DNA of 64,000 nt from an uncultured Gemmatimonadota bacterium (GCA_964404765.1 CAYOLL010000002.1:6604-70603); one strand, 5' to 3'; positions 3,495 through 47,432 are shown, numbered from the stretch's first letter. The notes: a model not told the origin generated them from the letters alone. Translations and numbers: made by a program.

Positions 3495-3572
3495 CTTGTC
3501 ATGCCGGAATGTTTTATCCGGCATCTTGTTTGCCTGAAAGAAGATTCCGGTTAAAAACATACCGGAATGACA
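3495..3572. repeat. Family-2 double-hairpin MITE-like element, copy 1 (TGTCAT...ATGACA ends)
   Basis: Hairpin atgccggaat-gttttat-ccggcat, then hairpin attccgg-ttaaaaacata-ccggaat, followed by gaca. It is homologous to copies at 34946-35022 and 47360-47432. It sits in the divergent promoter region between the lipoprotein and radical SAM genes. Confidence 0.6.
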
Positions 3573-3757
3573 CCGACAAAAAGTGTTCTAAAAGTCGTTG
3601 ACTAGTACAAAAAAAGTTCAAAAGCAACAAATTCAGTCAAAGTTCGCAAAACGGATTCAACAGTCTTAAAATCAAATATAACTGTTTTTAGCAAAAAGTC
3701 AAAAGCAAAGAAAAAGAAATCTCCCCGCAAAAAGCGGCGAGAAATATAATTAAAGGA

Positions 3758-4825
3758 ATGGGTATGCTGAAAATTCCGCTAAAATTGCTCTACCAGGTTG
3801 CGCAAACCTATCAGTATAAAATTACGACCAAGCGTCTGCTCAATCTGGCCAAAGTCGGATCATCAATGGCGGTTTCGCGATTAACACGCACGCCGTACGT
3901 GTGGGGCTATCCGTGCCTGCTGATGGTTGAACCGACCAATATCTGCAACCTCAAATGCCCCATGTGCCCGTCCGGTAATGGCGAAATGACCCGCACCCGC
4001 GGCAAAATGAACCTCGCCAATTATCGCAGTGTGCTGGACGAACTGGGCGATTATCTGGCGCTGATCCTCTTTTGGAATCAGGGCGAGCCTTTTATCAACA
4101 GCGCGTTTCCGGAAATGATTACCTACGCCAAAAGCAAGGGCATCCCGACCATGACCAGCACCAACGGGCACTACATCCGCACCGACGCCGAAGCGGACGC
4201 CGTGATTCAGTCCGGTTTGGATGAGATTATTGTCTCGCTGGACGGCGCCAATCAGGCTGCCTACGAGCAATATCGGATTGGCGGCAGCTTTCCAAAGGTG
4301 ATGAAAAGCCTTGAGTTGCTGATCGAACGCAAGAAGGCGTTGAATTCGCCCCGCCCGCTCATCACCTTGCAGTTTATTGTCTTTAAGCACAATCAGCAGC
4401 AAATTGATGAAGTGAAGGCGATTGGCAAACGGCTCAACGTGGATCGGATTTCGCTCAAGACGGCGCAGATCTATACTGAAGTCCAGGCCGAGACTTTTTT
4501 GCCGGATGACGAGCAATACCGCCGCTACCGCAAGACCGATCAGGGCCATGAAATGAAGCTAAAGCCGCAAAACTGGTGCAAGGTGATTTGGCACAGCGCT
4601 GTGCTAAATTGGGACGGTCTGGTTGCCCCCTGCTGCTTTGATAAAAACGGCGAGTATGCCTATGGTAACGCTTTTAAGGACGGCAAGAATTTTCGCGAGC
4701 TTTGGACCGGCAGCGAGATTACGGCATTTCGGCAACAAATCCTGACGAACCGCAGCGCCATGCCCATGTGCGGCAACTGCTTTGAAGGCATGACGCAATC
4801 GTACGCGCAGTATATTGAAGTTTAA
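3758..4825 (+). CDS. Radical SAM enzyme with a C-terminal SPASM-type auxiliary-cluster domain
   Basis: CxxxCxxC motif 'CNLKCPMC'. C-terminal Cys-rich segment 'CKVIWHSAVLNWDGLVAPCCFD...MPMCGNCFEG' is typical of SPASM/twitch domains. Confidence 0.8.
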   Translation: MGMLKIPLKLLYQVAQTYQYKITTKRLLNLAKVGSSMAVSRLTRTPYVWGYPCLLMVEPTNICNLKCPMCPSGNGEMTRTRGKMNLANYRSVLDELGDYLALILFWNQGEPFINSAFPEMITYAKSKGIPTMTSTNGHYIRTDAEADAVIQSGLDEIIVSLDGANQAAYEQYRIGGSFPKVMKSLELLIERKKALNSPRPLITLQFIVFKHNQQQIDEVKAIGKRLNVDRISLKTAQIYTEVQAETFLPDDEQYRRYRKTDQGHEMKLKPQNWCKVIWHSAVLNWDGLVAPCCFDKNGEYAYGNAFKDGKNFRELWTGSEITAFRQQILTNRSAMPMCGNCFEGMTQSYAQYIEV

Positions 4826-4854
4826 GCAGGCTAAGACACGCGATCCATAAAACC

Positions 4855-6525
4855 TCACAACATCTCCCGCTCCAACGCCAGATTGGCGGCATCCAGCACC
4901 ACTTCTTCCCGCAGCAGCTTAAGCATCCGCTGAATATCCGTCGCCACGACGCGATCCGTCTCCAAAAAGGTAACATACTCGCGAATTTTTGCATGCACTT
5001 TTTCGACGGCCCGGCCCAGTCGCAGCGGACGGGCTGTGGTCTTTTTGCGGACAATGCGGTCGCCGTAAAATTCTGGCGGATAGTGGTAGCCTTTCAGCCG
5101 GAAATCTAATGCCTGCGCGGCGCACAGCAATTCAATCGCCACAACGGTCTGGGCATTAATCAGGATTTGATAACCGTGCGACGCCGCGGTCAAGCCCATG
5201 CTGACATGATCTTCCTGATCTTCCGACGTGGGAATGGAATCGACGCTGGCGGGATGGGCCAGCACCTTGTTTTCGGCCACCAGCGAGGCTGCCGTATATT
5301 GGGCGATCATGTAGCCGCTGTTGATGCCGCTCTGTTCGACCAAACACGACGGCAGGTTAAAGTTGAGCGTGGCGTCGGTCAAGCGGAAGGTACGCCGCTC
5401 GGACAAGCCGCCGATTTCGGCCAGGGCAATGCCCAGAAAGTCCATGGCCAGCGCAATGGGTTCGCCATGAAAATTCCCGCCGGAAAAAGCCTTGTTCTCG
5501 CGGTCGGCGTCGATAAAAATCAGCGGATTGTCGTTGGCCGAATTTAGTTCGGTCGTGACGATGCGCCGCACAAAATTGAGCGTCTCACGCACGGCTCCCA
5601 GCACTTGCGGCGTGCAGCGGATGGAGTAGGCGTCCTGCACTTTACCGGGAAAAGCGTCCAGCAACTCGCTGCCTTCGGTCAGGGCGCGGATGTTGGCGGC
5701 AGACTGAATCTGACCCTCAAACGGGCGCACCTCGTGGATGCGCGGGTTGAAGGCATCGGTCGCGCCGAGCACGGCCTCGGTCGTCATGGCCGCGGCAATC
5801 TCGCAGGTTTGCAGCAAACAGTAGCCGTCGTAAACGCAAAAAGCGGCCAGAGAAGTCATCGCCTGTGTGCCGTTATTCAGCGCCAGACCTTCCTTTGCCC
5901 CCAGTACCACCCGTTCCAAACCGGCTTCGGCCATCGCTTTCTTGCCGGAAATCAAGGCCCCGTCTTTGGTAATAACCTGGCCGCTTTCACTGTCCAAATC
6001 TTTGGCCGGATCAGGATGCCGGCTCATGACCAAAGCCAGATGCGACAAGGGCGCCAGATCACCGCTGGCCCCGACGGAGCCTTTTTGTGGGATGGCCGGA
6101 TGTATGCCGCGGTTGAGCATTTCCGCCAGGACGCGCACGGTTTCCACCCGCACGCCGGAATAACCCTTCAGCAGCGTATTAATGCGCAGCAAAATCATAG
6201 CCCGCACAATCTCGACTGGAAAATTGTCGCCTACGCCGGCGGCATGGCTGACGATCAGGTTGCGGGAGAGCAGTTCGGCTTGCTGATTGGGGATGGTGAC
6301 GTTGGCCTTGGAGCCAAAGCCGGTGTTCAGGCCGTAGACGATCAGCCGGTCTTCGGCGATCACGCCGTCAACCCAGGCCCGGCATTTTTGAACAGCGGCC
6401 AGCGCATCGGCATCAAGCACGACGACGGCCCGATAACGCGCCACGGCAATAATTTGCTCAATGGTCAGCGATTGACCGTCCAATCGAACTTCGGCAAAAT
6501 GGCGCGGATGGTTATTGTGCGGCAA
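4855..6525 (-). CDS. MIO-dependent aromatic amino acid ammonia-lyase / aminomutase family enzyme (HAL/PAL/TAL family)
   Basis: Ala-Ser-Gly MIO-forming triad in context 'GSVGASGDLAPLSHLAL'. The protein is 556 aa. No hutU/hutI neighbours are present, so histidine specificity is not assumed. Confidence 0.8.
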   Translation of the reverse strand: MPHNNHPRHFAEVRLDGQSLTIEQIIAVARYRAVVVLDADALAAVQKCRAWVDGVIAEDRLIVYGLNTGFGSKANVTIPNQQAELLSRNLIVSHAAGVGDNFPVEIVRAMILLRINTLLKGYSGVRVETVRVLAEMLNRGIHPAIPQKGSVGASGDLAPLSHLALVMSRHPDPAKDLDSESGQVITKDGALISGKKAMAEAGLERVVLGAKEGLALNNGTQAMTSLAAFCVYDGYCLLQTCEIAAAMTTEAVLGATDAFNPRIHEVRPFEGQIQSAANIRALTEGSELLDAFPGKVQDAYSIRCTPQVLGAVRETLNFVRRIVTTELNSANDNPLIFIDADRENKAFSGGNFHGEPIALAMDFLGIALAEIGGLSERRTFRLTDATLNFNLPSCLVEQSGINSGYMIAQYTAASLVAENKVLAHPASVDSIPTSEDQEDHVSMGLTAASHGYQILINAQTVVAIELLCAAQALDFRLKGYHYPPEFYGDRIVRKKTTARPLRLGRAVEKVHAKIREYVTFLETDRVVATDIQRMLKLLREEVVLDAANLALEREML

Positions 6526-6593
6526 AGAAATCTCCAGTTCTTTCCAAAAAGCTCACCTTCGCCACGAAGGCACAAAGACACTAAGGAATACCG

Positions 6594-6743
6594 TTTAAAT
6601 AACTTTGGGTTTTGATATAAATGCTTGGCGCTACGACCCTAAGGGTTTCGCTTTTTAACCCTTAGGGTTTTGGCCTCTGCAGTGAAAACCCTAAGGGTTG
6701 AGGAGCAAACCCTTAGGGTGAGTTTACCCAAAGTTATTAAATT
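6594..6743. repeat. Family-1 MITE-like element, copy 1 (~150 bp, 16-bp terminal inverted repeats, four CCCTAAGGG/CCCTTAGGG palindromes)
   Basis: Terminal inverted repeat tttaaataactttgggt ... acccaaagttattaaa. Internally it alternates ccctaagggtt and cccttagggtt. It is nearly identical to 30892-31040. Confidence 0.7.
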
Positions 6744-7145
6744 GATGATCCTAAGTTTCACGAAGTTCGTCACCTAATTTATGCATCAAGCGTCTTAATG
6801 ATTCTTCGGCTTGAAACGGAGCTTGCGGCGGGTAAAGCCTTCAGGCATAATATTTGTTAAGATGTGTTAGTTAATTCCAGACAGTTTGCCATGTTACATT
6901 GCCGGCCTGAAAATGGCAAGCGAAAACTTCCATTTCAAGGTTGGGAACAAAAATGGCGCTTTCGGTCGCGAGTCATGTTCAGTTTCCGACAAGTTTTCCC
7001 TGTTTTTTTTGCTGGTTGGATTTACGGAATGCAGGCAGGACGGCATTTGCGTTGCCGATGGATAACGGCATGAATATTGCCAATAAGAAGGCTTTACAAA
7101 TCGTGCAGTTTAGCGAATCACCGCTTTTACAGGAAGGAAAACACA

Positions 7146-10100
7146 ATGAAATGCAACTGGAAGCTTGTCATTTGCCTGGCGCTGATGATTTGCCGATCCG
7201 TTTTGGCCGGCGAAACCGGCAAAATTGTCGGCACGGTGACGGATAAATATAGTAAGGAACCGCTCGCGGGCGTCAGCGTCCGAATTGAGGGAACAGATTT
7301 GGGGGCAAAAACCGATCCGAACGGACAGTATTGTATTATGGCCCCAGTCGGGCAATTTAGGACGCGTTTTAGCTCCGTTGGGTATGTGTCGACAGTTATT
7401 AGAGATGTACAACTCTTGCCTGATCAAACGCTCACCCTCAATATGGAGCTACAAGAAGATGTTCTCATTTGCGGCACAAATATATTTGACTTTAGCCAGA
7501 TGCTAAAATCTATCAGCCCGACAAACAGCGCTCAGACGATCTTCGCCTCCGACATTGACCGGCAGCCGATCCGTTCGTTGAGCGACCTGATCGGACGGCA
7601 ACCGGGCGTGACCCGCTACCTGCCGGAAGAAACCGCGTCCGGCCAGCGCGAGCTCATCTTTCGCGGCGGGCGCAGCGCCGAAGTCGATTGGCAGATGGAC
7701 GGTTTTTCCATCACCGATCCGGCCGGCGGCTTGAACTTGCTGTCCGTGCCGTTGGCGGCGATTCGGGCGGCCAACGTGAATCTGGGCGGCTTTGGCGTCG
7801 AAGACGGGCGTTACGCTTCCGGCATCGTCAATCTCATCGGCCACAGCGCCGACGCGGCTTACAATGCCGGTTATCACGCCAACATCGAAACAGCCACGGA
7901 TAACGTCGTCGGCTCAGGCTTTGACGATAACGCTTATCGCCTGACTCTGAGCGGGCCGCTGATTCCCTTTCCCAGCGGGGATGGTCAATCTCAATACCGA
8001 ACACGCCACAATGACAAGTATCGCTTCTTTTTCACCGCCGAGCGCACCTGGCAAGGCGACCGTTCCCCGCGCAGTGGCGTCCCGACCGACCTATTCAAGC
8101 AAGTCAGCGCCGATGAAGTCACCTTGCCCTATTCAACCGAAACCATTCCCGGCTATGGCCGACGCTTTGCCGACGCTTTGGAGCAATTGCAAGACGGTCG
8201 CCTGCCGCATAACGACCGCGATCATTGGGCCTGGTACGGCAAAGTCAACCTGGATTTTTCCCATCGTATTAAGTTGGAATTATCCACCCTCGGCTCGACC
8301 GACCAATGGCAGCGTTATCAACACAAATATGTTTTTAACGCCGAACACACGCCCTATTATGACGACAAGGCTTCGACCTGGAACGCCGCTCTCAACATCA
8401 AATTGAGTGACAAAGCGCATATCGCCTTACGTGGCCAACATTATCAAGCCGAACGCTTTCGGGGCGACGGTGTGCATCGGAAAGATTTGCTGGCTTATGG
8501 CCGCCCGCAAGACTTTTATTTGTTTGATCAAACCGATTTGTTTTATAGCTGGGACGACATTGATGGCGAAACAACGCCGGAAACACGCGAGGTTTACTGG
8601 AATCCGGAATATTGGGGTGAAGATGCGGCGGATTGGGCGCCGGTTTCGTTTATCAGCGACGGCGACGAGGGTTATGTTTATGATGATTATTTGCAATGGA
8701 AATCAACGTTTAACGCGCTGAGTCTGGACGGTGTTTTTCAGATTCACCCCGCTCATGAAATTCGGGCCGGTCTGGATTATCACCGCTATACGGTGCGCTC
8801 TTATCGCTCAATTTTTCCAGCTCATAACGCCGTTCACTTTTTGGATGACCCGGAATTAGCCGAAGAAGATACCGACGCCTATGGCTATCGCTACAATCCG
8901 CGCACGAATCGCCTGGAAGAAGCGGACGATCCGGCCGGTAACGGCTGGGACGGGCCGCGCGAACCCAAAACGACCGCCTTTTACTTTCAAGATAAAATGG
9001 AATACGAGCGCGTGACGCTGACAGCCGGTATCCGTGCGGATGCTTTTGACGCCAACACCTATTGGTTTAAAAACTTGTATTATCCATTGAGAGGTTCTGA
9101 TGACTGTGATTTTGACAGTGAATTTGGCTGTGATTTCGATTGGAGTTGGCAACGTCTGGATCAGGAGGATCTGAAAAAAGTTGCGATGAAAACAAGTATC
9201 AGCCCGCGCTTCAGCATTGACTTTCAAACCGGGGATAACACATATCTCTCTGTTACATATGGCCATTATTATCAATTACCGGCCTTTAACATCCGATACA
9301 ACGGGTTTAAATTTTTAGAGCATCAATTTCTTCGCGGCAGGTATTTTTATCCGTTAAACAATGCGGATTTAAAGCCGGCCAAAACGGAATTTGCGGAACT
9401 GGGGCTGCAGCATCGTTTGAACTTACGGTCAACTGTCGGTCTGCGTATTTTTTCAAAAAACAGTTCAGATGCTCTGGAATATAGCACGACCAATTACAGT
9501 TGGTATACCTTCTTGAAAAACGGCGTATCCGGTCAAACTCAGGGTGTTGATATAACCCTGAGCACAATCTCTAAAAGCGGCCTTTTGGCCACCGCGGTTT
9601 ATGGCTATAGCTACGGGCGTAGTGAAGCTTTGGTAAATGAACTGACGTATGTGATTGCCTGGCATGGCGGGACGTCGCCTAACTCTCTGTTTCCAGCGGA
9701 CTTTGAGCAACGTCACAAACTCTTGCTCAATCTTGATTGGCGCAATCGGAATCAGGATTGGCGCGGATCGTGGCGGGACTTCCGGCGGCAGGCGGGAGTC
9801 AATGCGCTGTTTACAGCCAACAGCGGCACACCCTATACACCCACATATATTTTTAACGAAACCACGTTGGCTAACACCGGCCCCGCCCACCGTGGCGCTC
9901 CGAATTCTCACAGCAAGCCATGGACCTGGCAGATTGACTTGAAAGTCGATTATCGCCTACCATTCCAAGCTTTTGAAGGCAAACTCTACCTAACGATTTT
10001 GAATCTGCTGGATCGCAAAAACGCGGTTGATGCCTACACCGGAACAGGCGATCCGGCTTCAACCGGTTTTTTGCAAACCGAGTACGGCCAATATTACGCC

Positions 10101-10235: not shown

Positions 10236-10270
10236 ATTAAAAGCCCACGCTCTGGACATCCGGCGCAGAC

Positions 10271-11521: not shown

Positions 11522-11782
11522 GAGTGTCTTCCTTATTTGTTTGCTATTGCTGCGCCGCCATCGTCTTTCGCATAATATGATGTGACCCATTATTCATCAA
11601 GCAAAATTTCCGGACATCCTGTAACCCTTATGAGTGAATCCCGTTTCCGCACCCAAACGGAACTTAATTTTTATCGACGGGGTAAAAAAATTGAAAACTT
11701 TTTGTGAAATATGACAGTTACAAAAATTTTACGTTAAAATTGAATTTAACATCCTGACCCTGCAACTTCAAAAAACATCCCT

Positions 11783-13274: not shown

Positions 13275-13277
13275 ATT

Positions 13278-13445
13278 CTTCATTAGCCACGAAGTCACCA
13301 ATGCACAAAGAATCACTAAGATTTTAAATTAAAAGATGTTATGACGTTTTTTAGGTGACGAAGATGTCGGCAAAAAATAAATTTTTTGCATGACCTTCGT
13401 GAAACTTAGTGCTTTCGTGTCTTTGTGGCAGGTCTTTGAATTTTT
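13278..13445. repeat. Large imperfect palindromic intergenic element with arms of the form ccacgaag..cacaaaga..cactaag
   Basis: Left arm gccacgaagtcaccaatgcacaaagaatcactaag; right arm cttagtgctttcgtgtctttgtggc. Related arm sequences flank MITE copy 1 at 6560-6589 and 6750-6775. Confidence 0.4.
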
Positions 13446-13462
13446 CAGGATAAAAAGATAGA

Positions 13463-15409: not shown

Positions 15410-15520
15410 TTGCGTAGCCTGAGCGGGTTAAAAAAAACGGCGCGCCGATAAAGCCCATCAAACGAAAGAGTTATCCGTATAAATCCGTTTCATCCGCGTA
15501 AATCCGTGTTCTATCTTTTC

Positions 15521-22228: not shown

Positions 22229-22408
22229 TCAAGTGGCAGCGTCTTGAGGCACCGGCGCGCCATCGGGCAAAAAGCCGACCACGTTGTCCGGCAGCACTTC
22301 CGGCGAGGAGCGTATGTTCACATTGCCGTCGGCCACAACCCGACCAATGGTGATGGCCTCGGCAGTGGCGGCGGTCAACAGGCACAGCAGCAGGAATAAA
22401 GAGCGCAT
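22229..22408 (-). pseudogene. Truncated paralog of the secreted SH3b-like protein family (59 codons)
   Basis: Encodes 'MRSLFLLLCLLTAATAEAITIGRVVADGNVNIRSSPEVLPDNVVGFLPDGAPVPQDAAT*'. It is about 90% identical at the DNA level to the 5' end of the 23336-24319 gene. It is absent from the ORF track because it is shorter than 60 aa. Confidence 0.55.
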
Positions 22409-22434
22409 GGGTAAATCCTCCGGGGTAAAGGGCG

Positions 22435-22463
22435 AATTTCCAAATCTCGCAGATTTGGAAATT
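22435..22463. promoter_or_regulatory. Perfect 13-3-13 palindrome upstream of SH3b-family copy 1; a candidate operator
   Basis: aatttccaaatct-cgc-agatttggaaatt lies about 27 bp upstream of the ATG on the minus strand. An identical palindrome occurs at 25271-25299. Confidence 0.4.
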
Positions 22464-22535
22464 CTATGGCGTTGAGTGTTATTTGACTGGCAGTGCGGAT
22501 GAATTTCGTGCCCGTCCGGGCGTTATTTGAGGAGG

Positions 22536-23335: not shown

Positions 23336-24319
23336 TTATTTGACAGGCGTTTCGGTGCGGGAGATGCGGACGTATTCGCTGCCGTTGAAATCGTAAGCTT
23401 CATTTATTCGAAGGTATTGATGAGGTTCATCATTGTAAGGGTCATCATCTTCTTTTGCTACGACCTCAATTTCAAGCTCCAAATCTTCATCAAGATTTTT
23501 AAACAACCCACGCCCTCTGTATAAGTATCCCTCACATCCACCATATGTGCGGAAATTTCCACCACATGATTTGTAATCACCATCAATAAAGCGATATACT
23601 CCCCAACTACACCCACTGCAATCATCCCCATCGTCACAATTTTCCAAAATCAACTCTTTTGCAGAATCACCTACCAAATTTCTGGCAGCAATAAAAGCAG
23701 AACGTACTCCATAGCACCCTTCGTCACACGTTCGCGGCGAACCAATAGCTATTCGTTTATATGATGAAGATGTTCCTATTTTATCTAAAATGCACGGCAT
23801 TGAAATATAGCGAGCTGTGTCTGAAGTATCTGAACCGCAACTGATTCCATATTCTACAAAAACTTCGTAATCCTCATCAAAGTCAACATTTACAAGCTTT
23901 AGCGCGTTTATCGATGTATTAGATTGAGAGGTCTCACAATATGGGTTTTTCGCATCGATTTTTTCAGCGGTTTCAATAAGATCGTTATAAGAATAAAATT
24001 CGGTCACTTCGATTAGTTCTAACGAAAAGCCAAATATCCAGTCATTCCCGACCGGGTCGGCACAACTGGGACACTTTTTTCGTCCGGTCAAGTCATACCA
24101 ATAATCCACCACGCCGTCAATCGTATCCGGTTGGGCGGTTTTGTCAAAAATAATCACCGTCGCGCCATCGGGCAAAAAGCCGACCACGTTGTCCGGCCGC
24201 ACTTCCGGCGTGGAACGCACATTTACATTGCCGTCGGCCACGACCCGGCCAACGGTAATGGCTTCGGCGGTGGCGTCAATCAACAGGCAGAGCAGCAGGA
24301 ATAAAGAACGCATGGACAA
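23336..24319 (-). CDS. Secreted Cys-rich protein with an N-terminal bacterial SH3-like domain; the full-length member of the local paralog family
   Basis: Signal peptide 'MSMRSLFLLLCLLIDATAEA'. 'ITVGRVVADGNVNVRSTPEVRPDNVVGFLPDGATVIIF' fits the SH3b pattern. There are about 20 Cys residues downstream and an acidic C-terminal tail. Confidence 0.6.
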   Translation of the reverse strand: MSMRSLFLLLCLLIDATAEAITVGRVVADGNVNVRSTPEVRPDNVVGFLPDGATVIIFDKTAQPDTIDGVVDYWYDLTGRKKCPSCADPVGNDWIFGFSLELIEVTEFYSYNDLIETAEKIDAKNPYCETSQSNTSINALKLVNVDFDEDYEVFVEYGISCGSDTSDTARYISMPCILDKIGTSSSYKRIAIGSPRTCDEGCYGVRSAFIAARNLVGDSAKELILENCDDGDDCSGCSWGVYRFIDGDYKSCGGNFRTYGGCEGYLYRGRGLFKNLDEDLELEIEVVAKEDDDPYNDEPHQYLRINEAYDFNGSEYVRISRTETPVK

Positions 24320-24336
24320 ATCCTCCAGAGTCGGCT

Positions 24337-24989: not shown

Positions 24990-25152
24990 TTTTGCTTCCT
25001 TTGAGTTAGCGGTTTTCTTGAATTTTAGCCGTCATTCAAGATAAACAAGTTGCTTTTCTTACCAAACACCTTTTATACGCCATCGGGCAAAAAGCCGACC
25101 ACATTGCCCGGCCGCACTTCCGGCGTGGAGCGCACATTCACATTGCCGTCGG

Positions 25153-25245
25153 CTACCACCCAATGGTTATCGCCTCCGCCCTTCGACTTAGTTCAGGACA
25201 AGCCAGGGCGGTCAACAGGCAGAGCAGCAGGAATACAGAACGCAT
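25153..25245 (-). pseudogene. Disrupted 5' fragment of a third SH3b-family paralog
   Basis: 'MRSVFLLLCLLTALACPELSRRAEAITIGW*'. The signal peptide is conserved, then a ~35-bp insertion/substitution introduces a stop. The same upstream palindrome is present. Confidence 0.5.
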
Positions 25246-25270
25246 GGGCAAATCCTTCGGATACAGGGCG

Positions 25271-25299
25271 AATTTCCAAATCTCGCAGATTTGGAAATT
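25271..25299. promoter_or_regulatory. Second copy of the perfect 13-3-13 palindrome (candidate operator)
   Basis: aatttccaaatct-cgc-agatttggaaatt, identical to 22435-22463. It is followed by a conserved ~25-bp block ttatttgacaggcgattcggtgtgg, also seen at 23336-23360 and 22478-22500. Confidence 0.4.
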
Positions 25300-25411
25300 C
25301 TGTGACGCTTGGGCGTTATTTGACAGGCGATTCGGTGTGGAATATCCAATGTATTCCATGTCGTTAACGTCGTAAAGTTCTTTACGTTGAAAGTGACGCG
25401 GGAGAGCGCCC

Positions 25412-30891: not shown

Positions 30892-31040
30892 AAATAAGTT
30901 TGGGTTTTGGAGTAAATGCGCCGGATGTGTGACCCTAAGGGTTTTGCTTTTTAACCCTTAGGGTCTCTGGCCTCCTCGGAACACACCCTAAGGGTTGAAG
31001 AGCAAAACCCTTAGGGTGAACTTACCCAAAGTTATTAAAT
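30892..31040. repeat. Family-1 MITE-like element, copy 2
   Basis: aaataagtttgggt ... acccaaagttattaaat, with the same four CCCTAAGGG/CCCTTAGGG palindromes. It is more than 85% identical to 6594-6743. Confidence 0.7.
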
Positions 31041-31165
31041 GGATGGTAAATATTTTCGAGAAGTTTTGTCATTTCAAATTCACGGGTGCGGTTACGGCGA
31101 AGAAATTACGGCGCTAAAAGAGAAAAATATCCGCGACGTTAGACCTCTTCACTTTATAAGGATCG

Positions 31166-34734: not shown

Positions 34735-34945
34735 ATGATGACCCGCTGGAAATACCGGCAATTGCTGCTGGCACATAGCTTGCCTCCACCGCAAAAAGGG
34801 ATCAGTTCAGTTTCACGCTTGCAAATACCCGCTGAAAGATATATCTTTCCGTAACCGTTTGGCTATCCTTTTGTTGCACGAATTTATCGTAATTGCTCAG
34901 CAATTCCCGCTTTCTTTAAAAACAGGCTTTAAAGCCACCAAAACT

Positions 34946-35022
34946 GTCATTCCCGCATACTTTTAGCGGGAATCTTGCTACAAATTCGGCTAAGATTCCG
35001 GCTAAAAACGTGCCGGAATGAC
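34946..35022. repeat. Family-2 double-hairpin element, copy 2
   Basis: tgtcattcccgc-atactttta-gcgggaat ... attccgg-ctaaaaacgtg-ccggaatgaca. Confidence 0.6.
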
Positions 35023-35052
35023 ATCTTTGGGGAGATCGCGGGAATTGCTGGT

Positions 35053-35160
35053 AATTGCTCAAAAAGTGGTGGTAAACCTAACCTTGCGAAGGCTTCAGTG
35101 CACGATTTCACAAGTTTTGCAGTAAAGCCTTCGCAAGGTTACCCACGCTTTTTGAGCAAT
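35053..35160. repeat. Family-3 nested palindromic element, copy A
   Basis: Outer arms attgctcaaaaag / ctttttgagcaat. Inner arms aaccttgcgaaggctt / aagccttcgcaaggtt, with a ~37-nt centre. Confidence 0.5.
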
Positions 35161-35357
35161 TACAATTTATCCTGGACGACGGATCAGGTGATCTGAAGTT
35201 AGCATAATCCCCATTTTTTGAAATAGACCAAAACTATCCTCTCCATAAATAAATTTGGATTTAACAAATGCATAAGGATCGCGTCCCTTAAACGAAATCA
35301 ATGCCAGGCTCTGGGGACGGGACAACCACAAGCGAGGGCTGAGGAAATTTATGGGTA

Positions 35358-38909: not shown

Positions 38910-38922
38910 AGCCGAATTTATG

Positions 38923-39023
38923 GTGTGATAAAGTCCCGGCTTAACCTTGCGAAGGCTTTATTTTGTTGGATCGGAATCGAGCAGCCAAGCCTTCGCAAGG
39001 TTATTTTTCCGACTTTGTCACAC
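38923..39023. repeat. Family-3 nested palindromic element, copy B, between convergent genes
   Basis: Outer arms gtgtgataaagtc / gactttgtcacac. Inner arms ttaaccttgcgaaggcttt / aagccttcgcaaggtta. Confidence 0.5.
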
Positions 39024-39054
39024 GTTCCTATAATACAAAGCCAATCGTTATGAT

Positions 39055-40107: not shown

Positions 40108-40238
40108 CGGGTTTTCCTTTCAGTTTGGAAAAAGTATTCTTACAGGTATTTGCCGTAGAGTCACAGCAATCAGCAATCACAGAGCATAATCATTTCTGCT
40201 AAAAATTGTCGCTGGGGTTCTGAGGCAAAACAGGGACG

Positions 40239-42506
40239 TTATTTCATCAAAATCATCGACTTACGGGCGGTAAAACCGTCCGCAGTTTGTAGCTCATAAA
40301 AATATAATCCGCTGGCGACAACCGTATCCGAATTGCTCCGCCCGTCCCAGTAGATTTCCTGCCAACCGGCAGGTCGTTGCTCATCCAAGAGCGTCCTGAC
40401 CCATCGGCCACTAGCATCATAAATTTGCAGCTTGACATGACCGCTGTTCTGCAGCGCAAAACTAAGCATCGTTGCAGGATTAAAGGGATTCGGATAATTT
40501 TGTCCCAGCGCGTTGAAGCGAGCATCTGTACCAGGTTCAACGGCCACCGGTTGCTCGATGACGACCGGCAGATACGGACTCCAGAGGCTGGGTTGAAATT
40601 CGGCGTCACGACCGCGCGCCTGATAGTAATAATGCCCGTTCGGACGGTCTGGAGTTGAATAGGATGATGCGATCAAATTTTTGGCTATAATTTCGTCACG
40701 CTCGAATTGCATGACAGGTTTGATATCATCAAAATAAAATCCTTCACCTTCTACGCGGTCATCCGTCACATAACGAAACCGGATAAATAGCGCTTGACCC
40801 GCGTACGCCGACAGATCAAAATCGCCCTCAATCCAGCCGTCGGAAGCGCCGGTGATGCCGTGTCCCAAATTTTTGCGGTTTGGATCCTGTGTGGTGGTGA
40901 TATTGCCCGGAATGTTCGTAAAGTTAAGCCCGTCCGTGGAAATTGAGACATAAGCATAATCATACGCGCTTTCGGTTTCATACCAGGTTTTAAAGGTCAG
41001 ATGGGCTCCGGCTTCAACAAAAATCGGGCGAATGGCTGTTAAACGGGAATCCGCCCGTGACGAGCGGCCGGAGTAGTAACTTTTTTGGTTGCTAAAGGCC
41101 CGCGCGAGGGATGGCACAAAACCTTGATAAAGCCAGGGTATGTTACCTTCCGCACTGTCTGTAATTTGTTGGGCGTTGTACAGTTCCCGAACTTCATAGC
41201 TCACGGCCGGATTGGCCGGATCGGGACGCGGGGTCGTCCAGGACAGGTGAAAGCGGTTCCAACTGTCAAAGATGGCTTCCGGCCGGTCAGGTTGGCCGGG
41301 TGGATCGACGCCGCCCGGATTGCTGGAAAATAGCGCGGCTTTGATGTTAATGGGACGCGTGTCGGCTAATAATTGCGGGATGGCCGATTCTGACGGTAAA
41401 AATTCCGTGCCGACTTCCGGTGTAAATGACAGAATTTTGTTTTTGGTGATTTGATCGCCATAAAACCAATCATCCGAGTCGCCGTTAGTCTCATAAATGG
41501 TTCCGGAGGTCACATTGCCCTGCACGTAGCCGTTTTCAGCGACAAAAGCCTGGCCCAATTTGACAAAAGTTGCATGATCGGGGGTGTTTTGGGCGGCATA
41601 GCCCCAGGGATATAAGACCAGACGGCCATAGCTGTGATAGTTGATAGCAATGACAAATTTTCGATTTCGGGCAAAGTTCCGGATGGCCTGGTTTTCCGGC
41701 TCGGAAAATGCCGCAGGCCCGCGGTAGGTTTCCGCGGACATATTCGGATTGGAACCGACGTTGTTATAGCCCCAATTGTAGCCGTAATTCCGATTCAAAT
41801 CAACGCCATCGTATTGAAGATCAAAGATACCGCTGGCATTATTATCGCGAACATTTTTGCGCCAATAGTTGTAGGTGGTTGCCACGACATTATGACCGTC
41901 CGGGTTCAGCATGGGCACAACCCACACTTCCCGTTGATTTACAATAAAGGCCGACGTGTCGTTGACGGCATAGTTTTCCGTCAAAAATTTGATGAAATCC
42001 AAAGGGATTTCCGCCGTAATAATCTCCCGGCTGTGGTGGACGCCGATAATTAGCAGCTCCGGCTCATCCTCGTCCACAGCGGCGTTGTCGGATATTTTCA
42101 TGGCCCAGATGTCGCGATTTTGCCAGGTTTTGCCGATACTTTGCAGCAGGGTGATGTCCGGGAATGCCGTATGAATGGCCCGCAGTTCATCTTCTACTTC
42201 CTGAAAAGTATGATACTGACCCAGATCGCCGCGTTGGCTGACAGCACGGCTTATATAAGCGTCCATGTCGCTTTGCCGGATTTCCATAGACCAATCGGCC
42301 AGCTCCCGCCGGCCCAACTGCTCAGTCGGCACAAAGTAATCCCCATAATCATGAGGCAGACGGCACATCGCCGATTCGTAACCCAGCGCTTGCAAGTCAT
42401 CCGGCTGATGGCTCGCGTCAAAGTAGAAACGTACCAACGCTGTTTCTGCGTTCAAAAGCTGCGCCGAAAACAAAATGCTTATGGCAATCATCGTTTTTAA
42501 TTTCAT
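40239..42506 (-). CDS. Secreted M14-family zinc carboxypeptidase with a T9SS C-terminal sorting domain
   Basis: Signal peptide. M14 zinc motif context 'IGVHHSREIIT' and '...NPDGHN'. C-terminus 'GQNYPNPFNPATMLSFALQNSGHVKLQIYDASGRWVRTL...GLYFYELQTADGFTARKSMILMK' is the T9SS CTD. Confidence 0.8.
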   Translation of the reverse strand: MKLKTMIAISILFSAQLLNAETALVRFYFDASHQPDDLQALGYESAMCRLPHDYGDYFVPTEQLGRRELADWSMEIRQSDMDAYISRAVSQRGDLGQYHTFQEVEDELRAIHTAFPDITLLQSIGKTWQNRDIWAMKISDNAAVDEDEPELLIIGVHHSREIITAEIPLDFIKFLTENYAVNDTSAFIVNQREVWVVPMLNPDGHNVVATTYNYWRKNVRDNNASGIFDLQYDGVDLNRNYGYNWGYNNVGSNPNMSAETYRGPAAFSEPENQAIRNFARNRKFVIAINYHSYGRLVLYPWGYAAQNTPDHATFVKLGQAFVAENGYVQGNVTSGTIYETNGDSDDWFYGDQITKNKILSFTPEVGTEFLPSESAIPQLLADTRPINIKAALFSSNPGGVDPPGQPDRPEAIFDSWNRFHLSWTTPRPDPANPAVSYEVRELYNAQQITDSAEGNIPWLYQGFVPSLARAFSNQKSYYSGRSSRADSRLTAIRPIFVEAGAHLTFKTWYETESAYDYAYVSISTDGLNFTNIPGNITTTQDPNRKNLGHGITGASDGWIEGDFDLSAYAGQALFIRFRYVTDDRVEGEGFYFDDIKPVMQFERDEIIAKNLIASSYSTPDRPNGHYYYQARGRDAEFQPSLWSPYLPVVIEQPVAVEPGTDARFNALGQNYPNPFNPATMLSFALQNSGHVKLQIYDASGRWVRTLLDEQRPAGWQEIYWDGRSNSDTVVASGLYFYELQTADGFTARKSMILMK

Positions 42507-42576
42507 ATAGCAATCCTCATTTTGGAAGTGACCAAAGCCTTTCCAAGCGACAAATTTGGCATGTTATCACATAACT

Positions 42577-42704
42577 TTGCAATAACAGTTGGTTAACCTT
42601 GCAAAGGTTCCCGCTTGTAAGTTTGTAAAAGCCATGAAAATATTAGCGTTCGTCGCAAGTTTAACCATCGCAAGGTTTGGTTTTACCAACACTTTTTGAG
42701 CAAT
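42577..42704. repeat. Family-3-like palindromic element, copy C (more diverged)
   Basis: ttaaccttgcaaaggtt ... aaccatcgcaaggttt ... ctttttgagcaat. Confidence 0.35.
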
Positions 42705-42711
42705 GACGTTA

Positions 42712-43557
42712 TCACGACTTAATTTCGATTTTCATACTGATATCCAATGCGGTCACGGAATGCGTTAAGGCGCCGATAGAGATGAAATCCACGCCGGTAC
42801 GCGCCACCGCCCGCGCATTGTAGAGATTGATCCCGCCTGAAGCTTCCAACGGAATTCGTCCGCCAGACAAACCGACCGCTTCGGTCATTAGCTCGATTGG
42901 CATGTTATCCAGCATAATGCGATCTACATCCTGTACCAGGGCTTGTTGAACCTCGGCCAGGGTGCGGGTTTCCACTTCAACGGCATATTTCCGGCCATAT
43001 TGTTTTCGGGCCCGCCGCACGGCTTCGGCAATACTGCCGGCGACATCAATATGGTTGTCTTTAATGAGAATCATATCGTAAAGACCGAGCCGATGGTTGA
43101 CGCCGCCGCCGACATAAACGGCATACTTGTCTAAAGTGCGTTGGCCCGGCGCGGTTTTGCGCGTGTCCGTAATTTTGGCGGACGTGCCTTTTACGGCGTC
43201 TACATATTTAGCGGTTAAGGTGGCGATGCCGGACATGCGCTGCAAGAAATTGAGCGCCAGACGCTCGCCGGTCAACAATGTCAGGGCGGAGCCTTGCACT
43301 ACTGCCAGAGAATCTCCTTTTTTTACAGGCATGCCTTCTTCAACGGTCATGTTAAACGAGATTTCCGGGTCAATTTCCAGAAAGACCATGCAGGCTACCG
43401 GTAATCCGGCAATGACGCCATCGCTTTTTGCAATGATTTTGGCTTTGGCCTGACGCTCCGCCGGAATGACGGCCTGCGTCGTTTTGTCACCATCGCCCAC
43501 ATCTTCTTTTAAGCCGAGCCGAACAATTTGGCGAATGGCTTCCTGATTTAGCAGCAT
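42712..43557 (-). CDS. nadC: Nicotinate-nucleotide pyrophosphorylase [carboxylating] (quinolinate phosphoribosyltransferase)
   Basis: '...GAVGLSGGRIPLEASGGINLYNARAVARTGVDFISIGALTHS' and the N-terminal region are typical of NadC. 281 aa. Confidence 0.9.
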   Translation of the reverse strand: MLLNQEAIRQIVRLGLKEDVGDGDKTTQAVIPAERQAKAKIIAKSDGVIAGLPVACMVFLEIDPEISFNMTVEEGMPVKKGDSLAVVQGSALTLLTGERLALNFLQRMSGIATLTAKYVDAVKGTSAKITDTRKTAPGQRTLDKYAVYVGGGVNHRLGLYDMILIKDNHIDVAGSIAEAVRRARKQYGRKYAVEVETRTLAEVQQALVQDVDRIMLDNMPIELMTEAVGLSGGRIPLEASGGINLYNARAVARTGVDFISIGALTHSVTALDISMKIEIKS

Positions 43558-43597
43558 GTACTCCCCCGTTATTGTTGATGATGCAGGCTGAAGGTTG

Positions 43598-44176
43598 TTA
43601 GATTATTGGCTGGGCTACCGCAATTTGCGGACGAATATAGCTTGGCCCAAAGCACATCGGCTGATAGCTTTTGTCCACGCCGCTTTCGGTGTAGAGCGGC
43701 GTCCAACCGGACATATCTTTAAACAGGCGAATGGCCCGAATCTCGCGCTCGGCGCATAGATCGAACCAATGGCGCGTACCTTTTGGCACGCGAATCAGAT
43801 CGCCGGCCTCTACTTCGATGGCAATGACCGGATTATTCTCCGGATGAATATGAAATAGGCCGCGGCCTTGAATGATAAAGCGCACTTCGTCATCGTCGTG
43901 CCAGTGCTCCCGGCTAAAACGGGCCAGCATGGTTTCCAATCCGGGTGTCGCCGGATTGACATTGATAATGTCGGCGGTGACATAATTGCCGCGCACTTTC
44001 AGCTTGTCAATTTCTTCCGAATAAGCCGCCAGAATTTCCTCGTTTGGCGCATCGGCGGCGACCGGATGCGACGATTGCCAGCGCTCGTAATCAATGCCGA
44101 TTTTGGCTAAGTACGCTGTCACATCGGTCTGATCGGTCAGCGTTCTATTCTCTTCGGGTATTCTTACTATGGCCAT
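43598..44176 (-). CDS. mtnD: Acireductone dioxygenase (cupin; methionine salvage)
   Basis: '[21 protein letters not shown]...[24 protein letters not shown]' is the cupin His/Glu motif of ARD/MtnD. Confidence 0.75.
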
Positions 44177-44270
44177 CTTTTCTCCTTTACGTGAAGAATT
44201 GCAACGTTATTTTAGCTCTTCAGATATGTTTGTGACGGTTAAGCCGTGAGGGTTTACACCCGCATGAACT

Positions 44271-44948
44271 TTAAAGTTTGTTCGATGAGCCGCTATTATG
44301 GCGCTGTCCCAGAACTTCAAACAAAAATTCAAATGTTTCAACATGGCGGCGGGCCTCGGCCACATTCCGACCCCAGGTATACAAGCCGTGCCGTCGTAAT
44401 AAAAAGCCGTGCGCGTTGGGATTGTCGGATAACATCCGCTCAACGATTTGGCCCAGTGCGTTCATTTCCTGAGCATTTTCGATAATCGGCAGCCATTCGC
44501 GATGGGTATGGGTATGCACCCCGGCCAGACCCTTCAACATTTCATAGCCTTCGATGCTCAGCCCGCCTTGATCACCATGCAGATCCGACAGAATGGTGCC
44601 CCAGACCGAGTGTGTATGCAGAATCGCCCCGGCATCGCGCTGCCGCAAAATAGCTAAATGCAGCTTGGTCTCGTCAGATGGACGGCCTGCTCCGGCTAAG
44701 ACCTGTTCAGCGCCATCAATGTGCAGAATATGTTCGGGCGTCAACGCGCCTTTGTCGGCTCCGGAAACCGTGATAGCCAATTGCAGCGGTTCGCGCTGCA
44801 AAACCGCGCTATAGTTTCCACTCGTGCCGAGCGCCCAGCCGCGCCGGTGAAAATCTTGTCCGATAAGAATAATTTGATGCGCTAAATCTAAAAACAACGT
44901 GCGCTCCTTATTTGTTATTAATGAAGGATAAACTTCTACCCAATTCAT
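44271..44948 (-). CDS. mtnB: Class II aldolase/adducin-family protein, probably methylthioribulose-1-phosphate dehydratase
   Basis: 'GWALGTSGNYSAVL...ITVSGADKGALT...HTHSVWGTIL' is the class II aldolase fold. It lies next to mtnD. The start was taken at the internal Met (MNWVEV...), and the ORF-track start 45068 adds a doubtful 40-aa leader. Confidence 0.7.
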   Translation of the reverse strand: MNWVEVYPSLITNKERTLFLDLAHQIILIGQDFHRRGWALGTSGNYSAVLQREPLQLAITVSGADKGALTPEHILHIDGAEQVLAGAGRPSDETKLHLAILRQRDAGAILHTHSVWGTILSDLHGDQGGLSIEGYEMLKGLAGVHTHTHREWLPIIENAQEMNALGQIVERMLSDNPNAHGFLLRRHGLYTWGRNVAEARRHVETFEFLFEVLGQRHNSGSSNKL

Positions 44949-45316
44949 TGAAATCAGTTTCAGGCAACTTCTATTACAAAAAACATTACGCGCGACTGAA
45001 ATGCAAGCTATCTGCGCATAGTTTGCCAAATAATTTCGGCATTTTTCAAAAAGCGTCATAATTTTCAAAAAATGTCAGACAGACCATCCGGCATTTTCGA
45101 TTGTTGAACCGGCGACACTTTTTGCTTGAATGTTCTGCCCGGATAGTGTAGTTTTGGCCTTTACACTGTGAAATTCGGTAACTACTCACCTTCACCACAG
45201 AAATACACGGAGAATATACGCTTGCGCACAGGATTTGACTTACTTCCGTGTAAATCCGTGACCTTCAGTGGTGATACCCGAGTAATTACAAAATTTGGAT
45301 ACTGTCTCCACAAACT

Positions 45317-46075
45317 ATGAGGGTTTTTATGGATCGCGAATACTTTTACCAAATGATTCAGGGCGAAGGCAAATTCGACTATGAGCTTTACCTCAACACG
45401 CCTCGACTTCTGACCTGCCAGAAAGAGTTTAAAGATTTTTGTAATCCGGACGAATTACAGTTTCAGGTTGTCCATCAATCGGAAGAATTATGGATGAAGC
45501 TGCTGGCCTACACGCTGCTGGATATTGACGACTATTTGCAAGCCGCTAACACCAACCGGGTTCTGACCTTGTTTGCGCGGGTTTACAAAATCCAACGTCT
45601 GATGACAGACCAATTGGCCCTTCTGGAAACCATGTCGCCCAAGGAATATCAGGAAATTCGGCTGCAACTCGGTAATGGCAGCGGTCAGGAATCGCCGGGC
45701 TTCCGCACGCTGCGCAAGATGTACAAACCTTTGTGGGATTCTTACAAAGCCACCTATCTCGATGCCCGCGGCCTGACGATTGAAAAAATCTACGACTCGG
45801 AGTACAAGCATGACGACGCCTACGTCATTGCTGAGGCTTTGTTTGAATTTGACCTGCAATTTCACAACTTCTTATACCATCACATCAAATTAATTCATCG
45901 CAGCATTGGCCTGCACGCCAAATCGCTTAAAGGGCGCTCGGTGGATATTCTTAACCAGGGGTTGCAAACCCAATTTTTTCCGGAATTGTGGGCCATTCGC
46001 AGTGAAATGACCGATCGCTGGGGCGCGCAATACGGTGTTAAACGGGAGTCACTTAGCCATGCCCAGCCCAATTGA
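45317..46075 (+). CDS. kynA: Tryptophan 2,3-dioxygenase
   Basis: 'YELYLNTPRLLTCQKEF...PDELQFQVVHQSEELWMKLL' follows the TDO pattern (Y..YL.LdkLL..Q...pdE..F.v.HQ..ELWfK). Confidence 0.8.
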   Translation: MRVFMDREYFYQMIQGEGKFDYELYLNTPRLLTCQKEFKDFCNPDELQFQVVHQSEELWMKLLAYTLLDIDDYLQAANTNRVLTLFARVYKIQRLMTDQLALLETMSPKEYQEIRLQLGNGSGQESPGFRTLRKMYKPLWDSYKATYLDARGLTIEKIYDSEYKHDDAYVIAEALFEFDLQFHNFLYHHIKLIHRSIGLHAKSLKGRSVDILNQGLQTQFFPELWAIRSEMTDRWGAQYGVKRESLSHAQPN

Positions 46076-47243
46076 ATCCATGCGTGAACAATTTCGTGTC
46101 CCGGACGGCATTTATCTGCTAAACCATTCCGTCGGCTGCCAGCCACACCGGACAACTGCTGCATTGGAAAATTATCAGCGCTTGTGGGCGGAAAAAGGCG
46201 GCGAAGCCTGGGGCGATTGGCTGACTTTAGTGGACGATTTTCGGCAGGCTTTGGCCGGATTGCTGGGCACACGTCCGGAAGCCATTTGTCCGCAAACCAA
46301 TATTTCATCGGCCTTGACCAAGATTTTAGCGGCGTTGCCGTCGCGGAAAAGTCGGACAAAAATCCTTTTGTCGGAGTTGGATTTCCCGTCCATGGGTTTT
46401 GTGTGCGATCAGTTCCGGGTGGCGGGTTATGAGCCGGTATTTTTGCCGGGCGAGCAAGGGCGGCTGCCTCTGGCACAATGGGCGGAGGCTTTGCGGGACG
46501 ATGTGCAGATTGTTCTTATCACCCACGTTTTGTCGGAAAGTAATTACCGCTGTCCGGTGGCGGATATTTGTCGCCTGGCCCGTGAGCGCGATATTTTTTC
46601 CGTAGTGGACGTGGCTCAGTCTATTGGCGTTGTGCCGATTGATATGGGCGAATGGCCGGCGGATTTCGTTATCGGCTCTTGTGTCAAGTGGCTGTGCGGT
46701 GGGCCTGGCGCTGGTTTTTTGTGGGTTGATTTAACCCGAATTGGGGAGTTTAAACCAATTGATGTGGGCTGGTTTTCTCACCAAAACCCCTTTGAATTTG
46801 ATATTCGACATTTTGAGTACAGCGCTGATGCGCGGCGTTTTTGGGGTGGTACGCCGTCGGTGCTGCCCTATGTGACAGCGGCCGCCGGTATTGCGGAATT
46901 GTCGCAAATCGGCCTGGCAGCTATCTCCACCCACAATCGGCGGTTAACCGATCACTTGACGCAAAGCGCTCTGGCCTGCGGTTTGACGGTTAACTCGCCG
47001 CATCAAGCGGACGAGCGCGGAGGCAGCGTCGTCATTGAGTTCTCGGATCGCAGTAAAGCCGCCGCCATATTCCGCGAAGCCGGCATTCGCGTGGATCAGC
47101 GTCCCAAATTCGGCTTCCGCTTCTCGCCGCATATCTACAATTCACTGGCCGAAATTGAGCAGGTTTGTGAGCAGCTTGGTCGGTTCAAGAATTGTCATTA
47201 TGCCAACATGCATTCAAAACAAAGGCATGTCTCCGGCACTTGA
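46059..47243 (+). CDS. kynU: Kynureninase (class V PLP-dependent aminotransferase fold)
   Basis: Class V fold and length ~395 aa. It overlaps or abuts the kynA stop. Alternative starts in the same frame are ATG 46080 and ATG 46035. Confidence 0.65.
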   Translation: MPSPIESMREQFRVPDGIYLLNHSVGCQPHRTTAALENYQRLWAEKGGEAWGDWLTLVDDFRQALAGLLGTRPEAICPQTNISSALTKILAALPSRKSRTKILLSELDFPSMGFVCDQFRVAGYEPVFLPGEQGRLPLAQWAEALRDDVQIVLITHVLSESNYRCPVADICRLARERDIFSVVDVAQSIGVVPIDMGEWPADFVIGSCVKWLCGGPGAGFLWVDLTRIGEFKPIDVGWFSHQNPFEFDIRHFEYSADARRFWGGTPSVLPYVTAAAGIAELSQIGLAAISTHNRRLTDHLTQSALACGLTVNSPHQADERGGSVVIEFSDRSKAAAIFREAGIRVDQRPKFGFRFSPHIYNSLAEIEQVCEQLGRFKNCHYANMHSKQRHVSGT

Positions 47244-47359
47244 AGCTCGGCAAACTTCCGAATTGGCACACTGCTTAAGTGCCGGGGACATTACCGTATT
47301 TTGTGTATTTCGTGGTGAATATACTTTTAACGGGCACAATCTTTCATTATTAGGGCATG

Positions 47360-47432
47360 TCATTTCGGCGCGTTTTTAGCCGGAATCTTCTTACAGACAA
47401 ACAAGATGCCGGATAAAAACATTCCGGCATGA
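47360..47432. repeat. Family-2 double-hairpin element, copy 3
   Basis: tgtcatttcggc-gcgttttta-gccggaat ... atgccgg-ataaaaacatt-ccggcatgaca. Stem positions covary relative to copies 1 and 2. Confidence 0.6.

Follow-up and report, generated by a model that had tools for sequence, protein, structure and literature searches.

Three copies of an intergenic double hairpin lie in a stretch of 64,000 nucleotides of DNA from an uncultured Gemmatimonadota bacterium (GCA_964404765.1, CAYOLL010000002.1:6604-70603), which is referred to at its full length as the window. Two described groups of hairpin repeats come closest to it, the CGTC-tagged repetitive extragenic palindromic (REP) sequences and the repeats recognized by Ssn nucleases. 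Comparison with both groups suggests that the double hairpins are probably inverted pairs of a CGTC/TGTC-tagged REP that is equivalent to the Ssn-related motif (SRM, like the NTS repeat of Neisseria), and that they represent a long-loop subfamily of putative Ssn sites.

The CGTC-tagged REPs form a superfamily that includes dRS3 of Neisseria and RPE-4 and RPE-6 of Rickettsia. The CGTC tag is often TGTC, the stems of 8-9 bp nearly always start with AT, and a tail of 3 nt follows (Di Nocera 2013, BMC Genomics, PMC3733652). Inverted dimers predominate, some of them lying within palindromes. Loops have 4-5 nt in the described families, CGTC-1 to CGTC-4, and exceptions in loop length are mentioned.

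The Ssn family (cd10448) consists of single-domain GIY-YIG nucleases (Chenal 2025, Nat Commun, PMC11893778). Binding of the hairpin repeat, called NTS in Neisseria and SRM in general, is restricted to single-stranded DNA (ssDNA) and to the tagged strand, and cleavage takes place a few nucleotides 5' of the motif, as shown for the enzymes of Neisseria and Wolbachia. Binding depends most on the C that directly follows the palindrome, and cleavage on the three bases that precede the palindrome. Transformation of N. meningitidis by DNA that carries NTS is lowered by SsnA. A nearby SRM was found for 71% of the ssn genes, and 42% have an SRM on both sides (PMC11893778). The authors describe an NTS-ssnA-NTS architecture that resembles an insertion sequence and suggest domestication.

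Three inverted doublets of a tagged hairpin

The three elements occupy positions 3497-3572, 34945-35023 and 47358-47434, counted, like all coordinates given for the window, in the whole 64-kb stretch (Table 1). Each consists of two modules of about 32 nt in inverted orientation, with the tags pointing outward and the tails inward, separated by spacers of 13, 15 and 13 nt in doublets 1, 2 and 3, respectively. A module is made up of the tag TGTC, an 8-bp stem starting with AT, a T-rich loop, the return stem, and the tail CTT. Tag and tail do not vary in the six modules (1L and 1R, 2L and 2R, 3L and 3R). The loop has 8 nt in module 1L and 9 nt in the other five, and among the loop sequences are ATGTTTTTA, ACGTTTTTA, ATACTTTTA and GCGTTTTTA.

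The module pattern TGTCATNNCNGN{8,16}CNGNNATCTT matched the window six times, as three inverted pairs, and had no match in 100 dinucleotide-preserving shuffles. A covariance model, run over the window with filters off, recovered the six modules and nothing else at 39.9-51.6 bits, the next best score being 12.1. The orientation of a module is set by its non-palindromic flanks, with scores of 40-52 bits on the tagged strand and about 10 on the other strand. Copy 3 is copy 1 reversed, and the two are collinear including the spacer (61 nt at 89%). Each of these copies has one arm of type A (ATGCCGGA) and one of type B (ATTCCGGY). All three copies are intergenic, and copy 1 lies between divergent genes.

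The original prediction had located three copies, which exist with coordinates that differ by 1-2 nt, and had correctly placed all three between genes and two of them upstream of large genes. Its account of two distinct hairpins, the second with a 7-bp stem and an 11-nt loop, needs revision. The stems have 8 bp and the loops 9 nt (8 in 1L), and the two hairpins are the same module on opposite strands, the cores GTTTTTA and TAAAAAC being reverse complements. [quoted passage not shown]

Within the arms of the window modules, 47 of 48 stem pairs are Watson-Crick and the remaining one is T.G, whereas pairing from arm to arm at the same positions reaches only 37 of 48. All three doublets are heterodimers, in which differences between arms come as compensated pairs inside an arm, indicating that the small hairpin is the conserved unit. 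The compensatory stem changes of the original prediction are therefore real, although its contrast between G:C in one copy and T:A in another compared non-equivalent arms: since copy 3 is copy 1 reversed, this contrast is one between the two arm types of a single element.

Covariation was also counted in 54 distinct 32-mers from many phyla, a set that includes chance matches. In this set, 95.4% of the stem cells were paired, compared to 80.4% in shuffles, and 60 cells had changed on both sides, compared to 19.1±3.3 in shuffles. Slid stem registers gave 25-51% pairing. Mismatches showed no strand asymmetry that would be informative either way (G.T 36 and A.C 44 on the tagged strand). Compensatory changes and structural constraint on the hairpin modules are real. 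Two small hairpins are not the predicted minimum free energy structure of the free strand. For the whole element as free ssDNA, this structure is one long hairpin in which the two arms pair with each other (-18 to -24 kcal/mol, z -4.6 to -7.6), and the case for the small hairpins is therefore made by covariation and by the heterodimeric arms, not by energy.

The modules share many traits with the CGTC-tagged REPs. The unpaired tag is TGTC in 6 of 6 window modules, stems of 8 bp with AT in the first two positions and an unpaired tail of 3 nt are found in all of them, and all three elements are inverted dimers that are able to fold into a larger hairpin. Nesting of dimers in other palindromes and the absence of an associated transposase are further common traits. 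The likeness to SRM and NTS extends to the HGTC tag, the stem starting with AT (W-Y), the C after the palindrome, the intergenic and often clustered placement, and the flanking of small GIY-YIG genes by inverted members of the repeat superfamily. The C and the three nucleotides most critical for binding and for cleavage, respectively, as defined by mutagenesis in Neisseria, are invariant in 6 of 6 window modules. The published SRM expression, HGTCWYN(0-2)YYVSBRHN(0-5)WNVSBRGN(0-2)RNCYNB, matches modules 1R, 2L and 3L exactly, with 0.18 matches expected per shuffled window. As checked by hand, module 2R deviates at the last base alone and 1L at stem position 8 alone; the stem of 3R is that of 1L.

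There are also differences. The loop here has 9 nt and is T-rich and moderately conserved (AYGYTTTTA), whereas the NTS loop is the 4-nt GMAV, and the tail is CTT instead of the CYRG/CCA of SRM and NTS. Unlike in the Neisseria SsnA system, the nuclease clade linked to 9-nt-loop modules has a C-terminal DG-x-ILPLP extension. A loop of 4-5 nt defines CGTC-1 to CGTC-4 and not the superfamily. The phyla involved (Elusimicrobiota, Omnitrophota, Ignavibacteriota, Calditrichota and Planctomycetota) lie beyond the five listed for CGTC repeats (PMC3733652). Measured against the descriptions in PMC3733652 and PMC11893778, the 9-nt loop, the CTT tail and the tailed Ssn clade make this an apparently new subfamily, in new phyla, of a described repeat class and enzyme.

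Modules in other genomes and beside Ssn genes

A scan of 185,579 species genomes with the module pattern, which fixed the tag, the tail, TTTT and two stem pairs so that only the four free pairs count as evidence, yielded at least 101 blocks (loci) in Bacteroidota, Ignavibacteriota, Omnitrophota, Elusimicrobiota, Planctomycetota, Calditrichota, Deferribacteres and Gammaproteobacteria. In most matches, the stems were perfect at the four positions left free by the pattern. Module 3R (arm A) was 100% identical to modules in contigs of Elusimicrobium sp. RUG13843 (L048, L098), and module 2L was 91-97% identical to modules in metagenome-assembled genomes (MAGs) of Deferribacteres, Chitinivibrionales and Ignavibacteriales. 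Across the loci, 462 modules carried the tag TGTC in 323 and CGTC in 108 cases; the tails CTT and CCA were found 156 times each. Neighbouring modules formed 156 pairs, 128 of them inverted (77 with tags outward, 51 with tags inward) and 28 direct. Tags outward is thus the commonest geometry, and the commonest gaps in such pairs, 13-17 nt, are like the window spacers.

Some loci showed additional organization. In Aliiglaciecola and Psychromonas, modules form arrays of the same orientation with a period of about 145-190 nt, as part of a larger unit (L064 2091-2973; L100 3328-4110; L082 6041-7406). In Elusimicrobia MAGs, modules adjoin type IV pilin-like genes with N_methyl and weak ComP_DUS matches (L039 4155-4919; L043 490-1453; L098 3497-5827). 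Such neighbours are of note because Neisseria SsnA acts on transforming DNA; N_methyl was found in 9 of 231 open reading frames (ORFs) near modules, which may be background, since such genes are abundant in these phyla.

The connection to the Ssn nucleases came from the inspection of ORFs bracketed by two modules. In locus L015, a GIY-YIG gene of about 108 codons is flanked exactly by inverted modules, in the order TGTC-hairpin-CTT, gene, AAG-hairpin-GACA. This cassette has the geometry of the window doublets, with the gene replacing the spacer. Two more GIY-YIG homologues in module-selected loci (L070 and L066) also adjoin modules. The link between GIY-YIG genes and the repeat was thus found independently here, but had already been published (PMC11893778).

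In a reciprocal test, 80 metagenomic loci were picked by homology to the GIY-YIG (Ssn) protein alone. A correctly oriented module was present beside the Ssn gene in 60 of them (75%), and modules were present on both sides in 38 (47.5%). Control segments from the same loci (n=1461) gave 2.4%, 1.2% and 0%, and none of them had modules on both sides. The flanking modules were mostly of the classical form CGTC.ATTCCCGC.GAAG.GCGGGAAT.CCA. Ssn homologues on viral contigs had modules near the gene in 20 of 26 cases. The partner proteins of the Ssn family have about 95-110 residues. NCBIfam held no model for these Ssn proteins, and a PDB search with them returned only weak matches to UPF0213 and UvrC.

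The closest homologues of the L015 protein end in a C-terminal DG-x-ILPLP extension (the DGEILPLP tail). In this tailed clade, the flanking modules had 9-nt loops in 7 of 7 loci (L015, L103, L182, L183, L184/185, L186 and L187/188), compared to loops of at least 7 nt in 11 of 66 loci of the short Ssn clade (Fisher p = 8e-5, for mutually related tailed-clade loci selected post hoc). One tailed-clade genome, GCA_016928255.1, also supplied the pattern-selected loci L083, L090 and L093, whose modules have ATGTTTTTA loops and CTT tails.

Three ssn cassettes of the tailed clade were observed within defence loci. The cassette in L015 (2147-2540) separates cas2 from the CRISPR array; this locus, which contains cas1 and cas2, was read as type II. 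In L184 (2455-2850; same in L185), it lies between cas7 and cas4 in a locus with Csd1, Cas7, Cas4, Cas1 and Cas2, read as type I-C. The cassette in L186 (2411-2944) has a helicase/PLD gene on one side and methyltransferase genes on the other. Such placement of SRM-ssn-SRM cassettes suggests either mobility of the cassette or a preference for such islands. As a separate observation, the ssn ORFs in L129, L142 and L177 continue into the module that follows, and their C-termini read, for example, GFPLSRE, GFPFSWE and GFPPSRE. C-termini of the GFPLSRE type are translations of ATTCCC..GGGAAT.

Proposed role and alternative explanations

The likely role of the modules is that of strand-specific binding and cleavage sites in ssDNA. 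During replication or repair, or in incoming transforming or conjugative DNA, a module exposed as a single strand would fold into the 8-bp hairpin and present TGTC unpaired on its 5' side and a C on its 3' side. Formation of the hairpin is the step supported here, by covariation. A small single-domain GIY-YIG Ssn protein would then bind this structure together with its flanks, solely on the tagged strand, and by analogy with the Neisseria and Wolbachia homologues would cleave the DNA a few nucleotides 5' of the tag. A protein that recognizes the flanks and depends on a stem would leave the tag, the initial two stem pairs (AT) and the C that follows the stem fixed while the inner stem drifts in a compensatory manner, which would produce the covariation pattern that was seen in the original prediction. 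A doublet would offer one cleavable site per strand, with cuts predicted just outside the element. Having 13-15 nt where the SRM-ssn-SRM cassette has its gene, the doublet is plausibly a MITE-like derivative of this cassette or a partner to it. The cognate nuclease is predicted to belong to the DG-x-ILPLP clade and to be encoded elsewhere in the genome.

Several points weigh against assignment of the doublets to the Ssn system. A tblastn search found no ssn homologue in the 64-kb window. Only three of the six modules satisfy the SRM regular expression, and the loops of 8-9 nt and CTT tails (6 of 6) depart from the described CGTC families, which have 4-5 nt and mostly CCA. The conservation of tag, tail, TTTT and two stem pairs in the scanned modules was partly built in by the search pattern, and the loci are not phylogenetically independent. 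The subfamily was assigned by sequence, the biochemistry being that of the Neisseria and Wolbachia homologues. Finally, a hydrolytic GIY-YIG nuclease alone cannot explain how the repeats multiply.

Assignment to the Ssn system would nevertheless have practical consequences. An odd covarying double hairpin would be filed under a nuclease and hairpin-motif system that was characterized only in 2025, and this system would come to include little-studied phyla as well as a long-loop subfamily that is paired with a nuclease clade bearing a tail. Genome annotators should mask doublets of this kind as SRM/CGTC-type REPs rather than list them as small RNAs or regulatory sites. A new pair of motif and nuclease could also serve enzyme discovery by widening the range of ssDNA-cutting specificities. 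The question raised for biology is how repeats multiply without a transposase.

A bolder version of this assignment is possible, but we hold it to be doubtful. The 9-nt-loop CTT modules may constitute a distinct Ssn specificity class, in which the DG-x-ILPLP extension would contact the T-rich loop, which is enlarged and semi-conserved, and the SRM-ssn-SRM cassette may be mobile at present, in which case the gene-less doublets would be its MITEs and the cassettes in two unrelated CRISPR-Cas loci and one restriction-modification island recent insertions. For Neisseria SsnA, loop identity is dispensable. If the bolder version were true, this would be the first family of REP-type repeats propagated through a GIY-YIG nuclease.

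Among the alternatives, the one that survives best is that the doublets are orphaned or decaying relics of a past Ssn/SRM expansion, left behind after loss of the nuclease and without function except as hot spots of recombination or secondary structure. The lack of ssn in the window would fit, as would the low number of modules (just six per 64 kb), the report that 19% of SRM-rich genomes have no Ssn homologue (PMC11893778) and the suggestion that CGTC families may be on their way to extinction (PMC3733652). However, the nearly intact stems (47 of 48 pairs) and the invariant tag and tail point to recent spread or ongoing constraint, and one arm is 100% identical to modules of an Elusimicrobium MAG. 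We regard the relic explanation as unlikely.

The original prediction had also listed a small structured RNA or an attenuator among the candidates. A transcribed element, whether a small RNA, a 5' untranslated region (UTR) attenuator, an mRNA-stabilizing hairpin or a terminator for neighbouring genes, would likewise be expected to covary around a partly conserved loop. Two copies do lie upstream of large genes, and E. coli REPs can act as 3'-UTR elements. Nevertheless, the whole window had no match at Rfam 15 gathering thresholds, promoter-like sites were at background level, and only one of six modules (1L, marginally) was terminator-like, the T run being located in the loop and not after the stem. 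Copies 1 and 3, one and the same element, point in opposite directions with respect to the genes downstream, and ssn genes are flanked by this module in dozens of unrelated settings. On the tagged strand G.T is not in excess over A.C, and SsnA does not bind RNA (PMC11893778). A role in RNA is quite improbable on these grounds.

The part of the original prediction that saw structure-constrained, dispersed hairpins of the REP kind, and a candidate substrate of an ssDNA enzyme, has held up; its assignment to REP-associated tyrosine transposases (RAYTs) or IS200/IS605 has not. According to that assignment, a transposase of the Y1 HUH type would recognize the ssDNA hairpins and copy or move the doublet, either as a REP doublet forming a hairpin (REPIN) or as the ends of an IS200/IS605 element. 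The resemblance to REPINs (Bertels & Rainey 2011; Nunvar 2010) is considerable: two inverted REP hairpins with a short spacer, intergenic dispersal, the potential to form a long hairpin in ssDNA, and a single-copy enzyme that acts on ssDNA and whose gene is flanked by its own repeats. RAYT genes being single-copy, absence from a 64-kb window says little. With the subterminal hairpins of IS200/IS605, the modules share imperfect ssDNA hairpins and, as proposed for them here, strand-specific cleavage a short distance 5' of the hairpin. The differences lie in the tag and the enzyme. REPINs have a GTAG tag and a Y1 HUH transposase with covalent intermediates, whereas the tag here is TGTC, GTAG adjoins no stem, and the gene flanked by these repeats is a hydrolytic GIY-YIG ssn. 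Compared to IS200/IS605, TnpA and TnpB are missing, one module is inverted in place of distinct left and right ends, and an insertion-site tetranucleotide is not evident.

Searches for the transposase itself pointed the same way. The Yxx-NP/HUH signature was absent from six-frame translations of the window and the 101 loci, as judged by a crude regular expression. Y1_Tnp was not among the best 25 Pfam families listed for each of two sets of module-adjacent ORFs (231 in all), where a single match could be hidden, and the families listed were mostly housekeeping. A tyrosine transposase flanked by CGTC repeats was found in none of the species examined earlier, and a dedicated transposase is apparently lacking (PMC3733652). 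Mobilization by a RAYT or an IS200/IS605 transposase is accordingly very improbable.

A double-stranded DNA operator, with each palindromic arm serving as a binding site of a dimeric regulator, would suit palindromic intergenic sites and the position of copy 1 between divergent genes, but has next to no chance of being correct, because half-site recognition needs no compensatory changes, yet these are pervasive, because non-palindromic flanks orient the module (51 bits compared to about 10 on the other strand), and because the neighbours are unrelated housekeeping genes across many phyla.

Other repeats around the doublets and in the window

Doublet 1 is enclosed by an outer inverted repeat, which is in turn bracketed by a direct repeat (Table 1). 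The outer repeat could indicate a composite element or insertion of the doublet into a pre-existing palindrome.

Table 1. Positions of the modules and spacers of the three doublets and of the repeats that enclose doublet 1
Feature	Position	Strand	Sequence	Remarks
Module 1L, arm type A, 31 nt	3497..3527	+	TGTC-ATGCCGGA-ATGTTTTA-TCCGGCAT-CTT	stem 8/8 Watson-Crick; 39.9 bits, outside the training set of the model
Doublet 1 spacer, 13 nt	3528..3540	.	GTTTGCCTGAAAG	collinear with the reversed copy 3 spacer
Module 1R, arm type B	3541..3572	-	TGTC-ATTCCGGT-ATGTTTTTA-ACCGGAAT-CTT	exact match to the degenerate SRM; 49.9 bits
Module 2L	34945..34976	+	TGTC-ATTCCCGC-ATACTTTTA-GCGGGAAT-CTT	exact SRM match; 51.6 bits
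Doublet 2 spacer, 15 nt	34977..34991	.	GCTACAAATTCGGCT	
Module 2R	34992..35023	-	TGTC-ATTCCGGC-ACGTTTTTA-GCCGGAAT-CTT	50.9 bits
Module 3L, arm type B	47358..47389	+	TGTC-ATTTCGGC-GCGTTTTTA-GCCGGAAT-CTT	one T.G pair; exact SRM match; 47.3 bits
Doublet 3 spacer, 13 nt	47390..47402	.		reverse complement matches the doublet 1 spacer
Module 3R, arm type A	47403..47434	-	TGTC-ATGCCGGA-ATGTTTTTA-TCCGGCAT-CTT	49.8 bits
Outer 29-nt inverted repeat enclosing doublet 1	3469-3497 / 3581-3609	.		83% complementary
15-nt direct repeat bracketing the outer inverted repeat	3454-3468 + 3610-3624		AAAAAAGTTCAAAAG	

Doublet 2 is nested between the inverted 13-mers CAGCAATTCCCGC and GCGGGAATTGCTG (34898-34910 and 35038-35050), the core of which, ATTCCCGC/GCGGGAAT, equals the SRM stem but has no GTC tag. 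At 28 nt downstream of doublet 2, a nested palindrome of about 113 nt occupies positions 35051-35163 (arms 35051-35075/35139-35163 and 35079-35102/35118-35141). Partial copies of it at 42677-42707 and 38975-39013 identify a separate family of palindromic repeats.

A further palindrome family, ACCCTAAGGGT, is represented at 6636-6767 and 30932-31065. Its arms of 33 nt are 91-94% complementary, and about 130 nt are conserved between the copies. Among the proteins of the window, GlgC shares only 65-70% identity with its nearest relatives in the databases, and some of these bear cyanobacterial or Cloacimonetes names. Four tandem repeats of 333 nt (60477-61775), with 93%, 93% and 68% identity to the first, lie in a minus-strand ORF of 1414 amino acids (59737-63981) and encode a repeated protein domain of about 111 residues. 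Related gene starts and upstream regions at about 22250-22500, 24155-24331 and 25078-25335 share repeats of 84-177 nt, and the perfect palindrome GAATTTCCAAATCTCGCAGATTTGGAAATTC is found at 22434-22464 and 25270-25300. The regions between 22250 and 25335 may belong to paralogous genes with a common operator.

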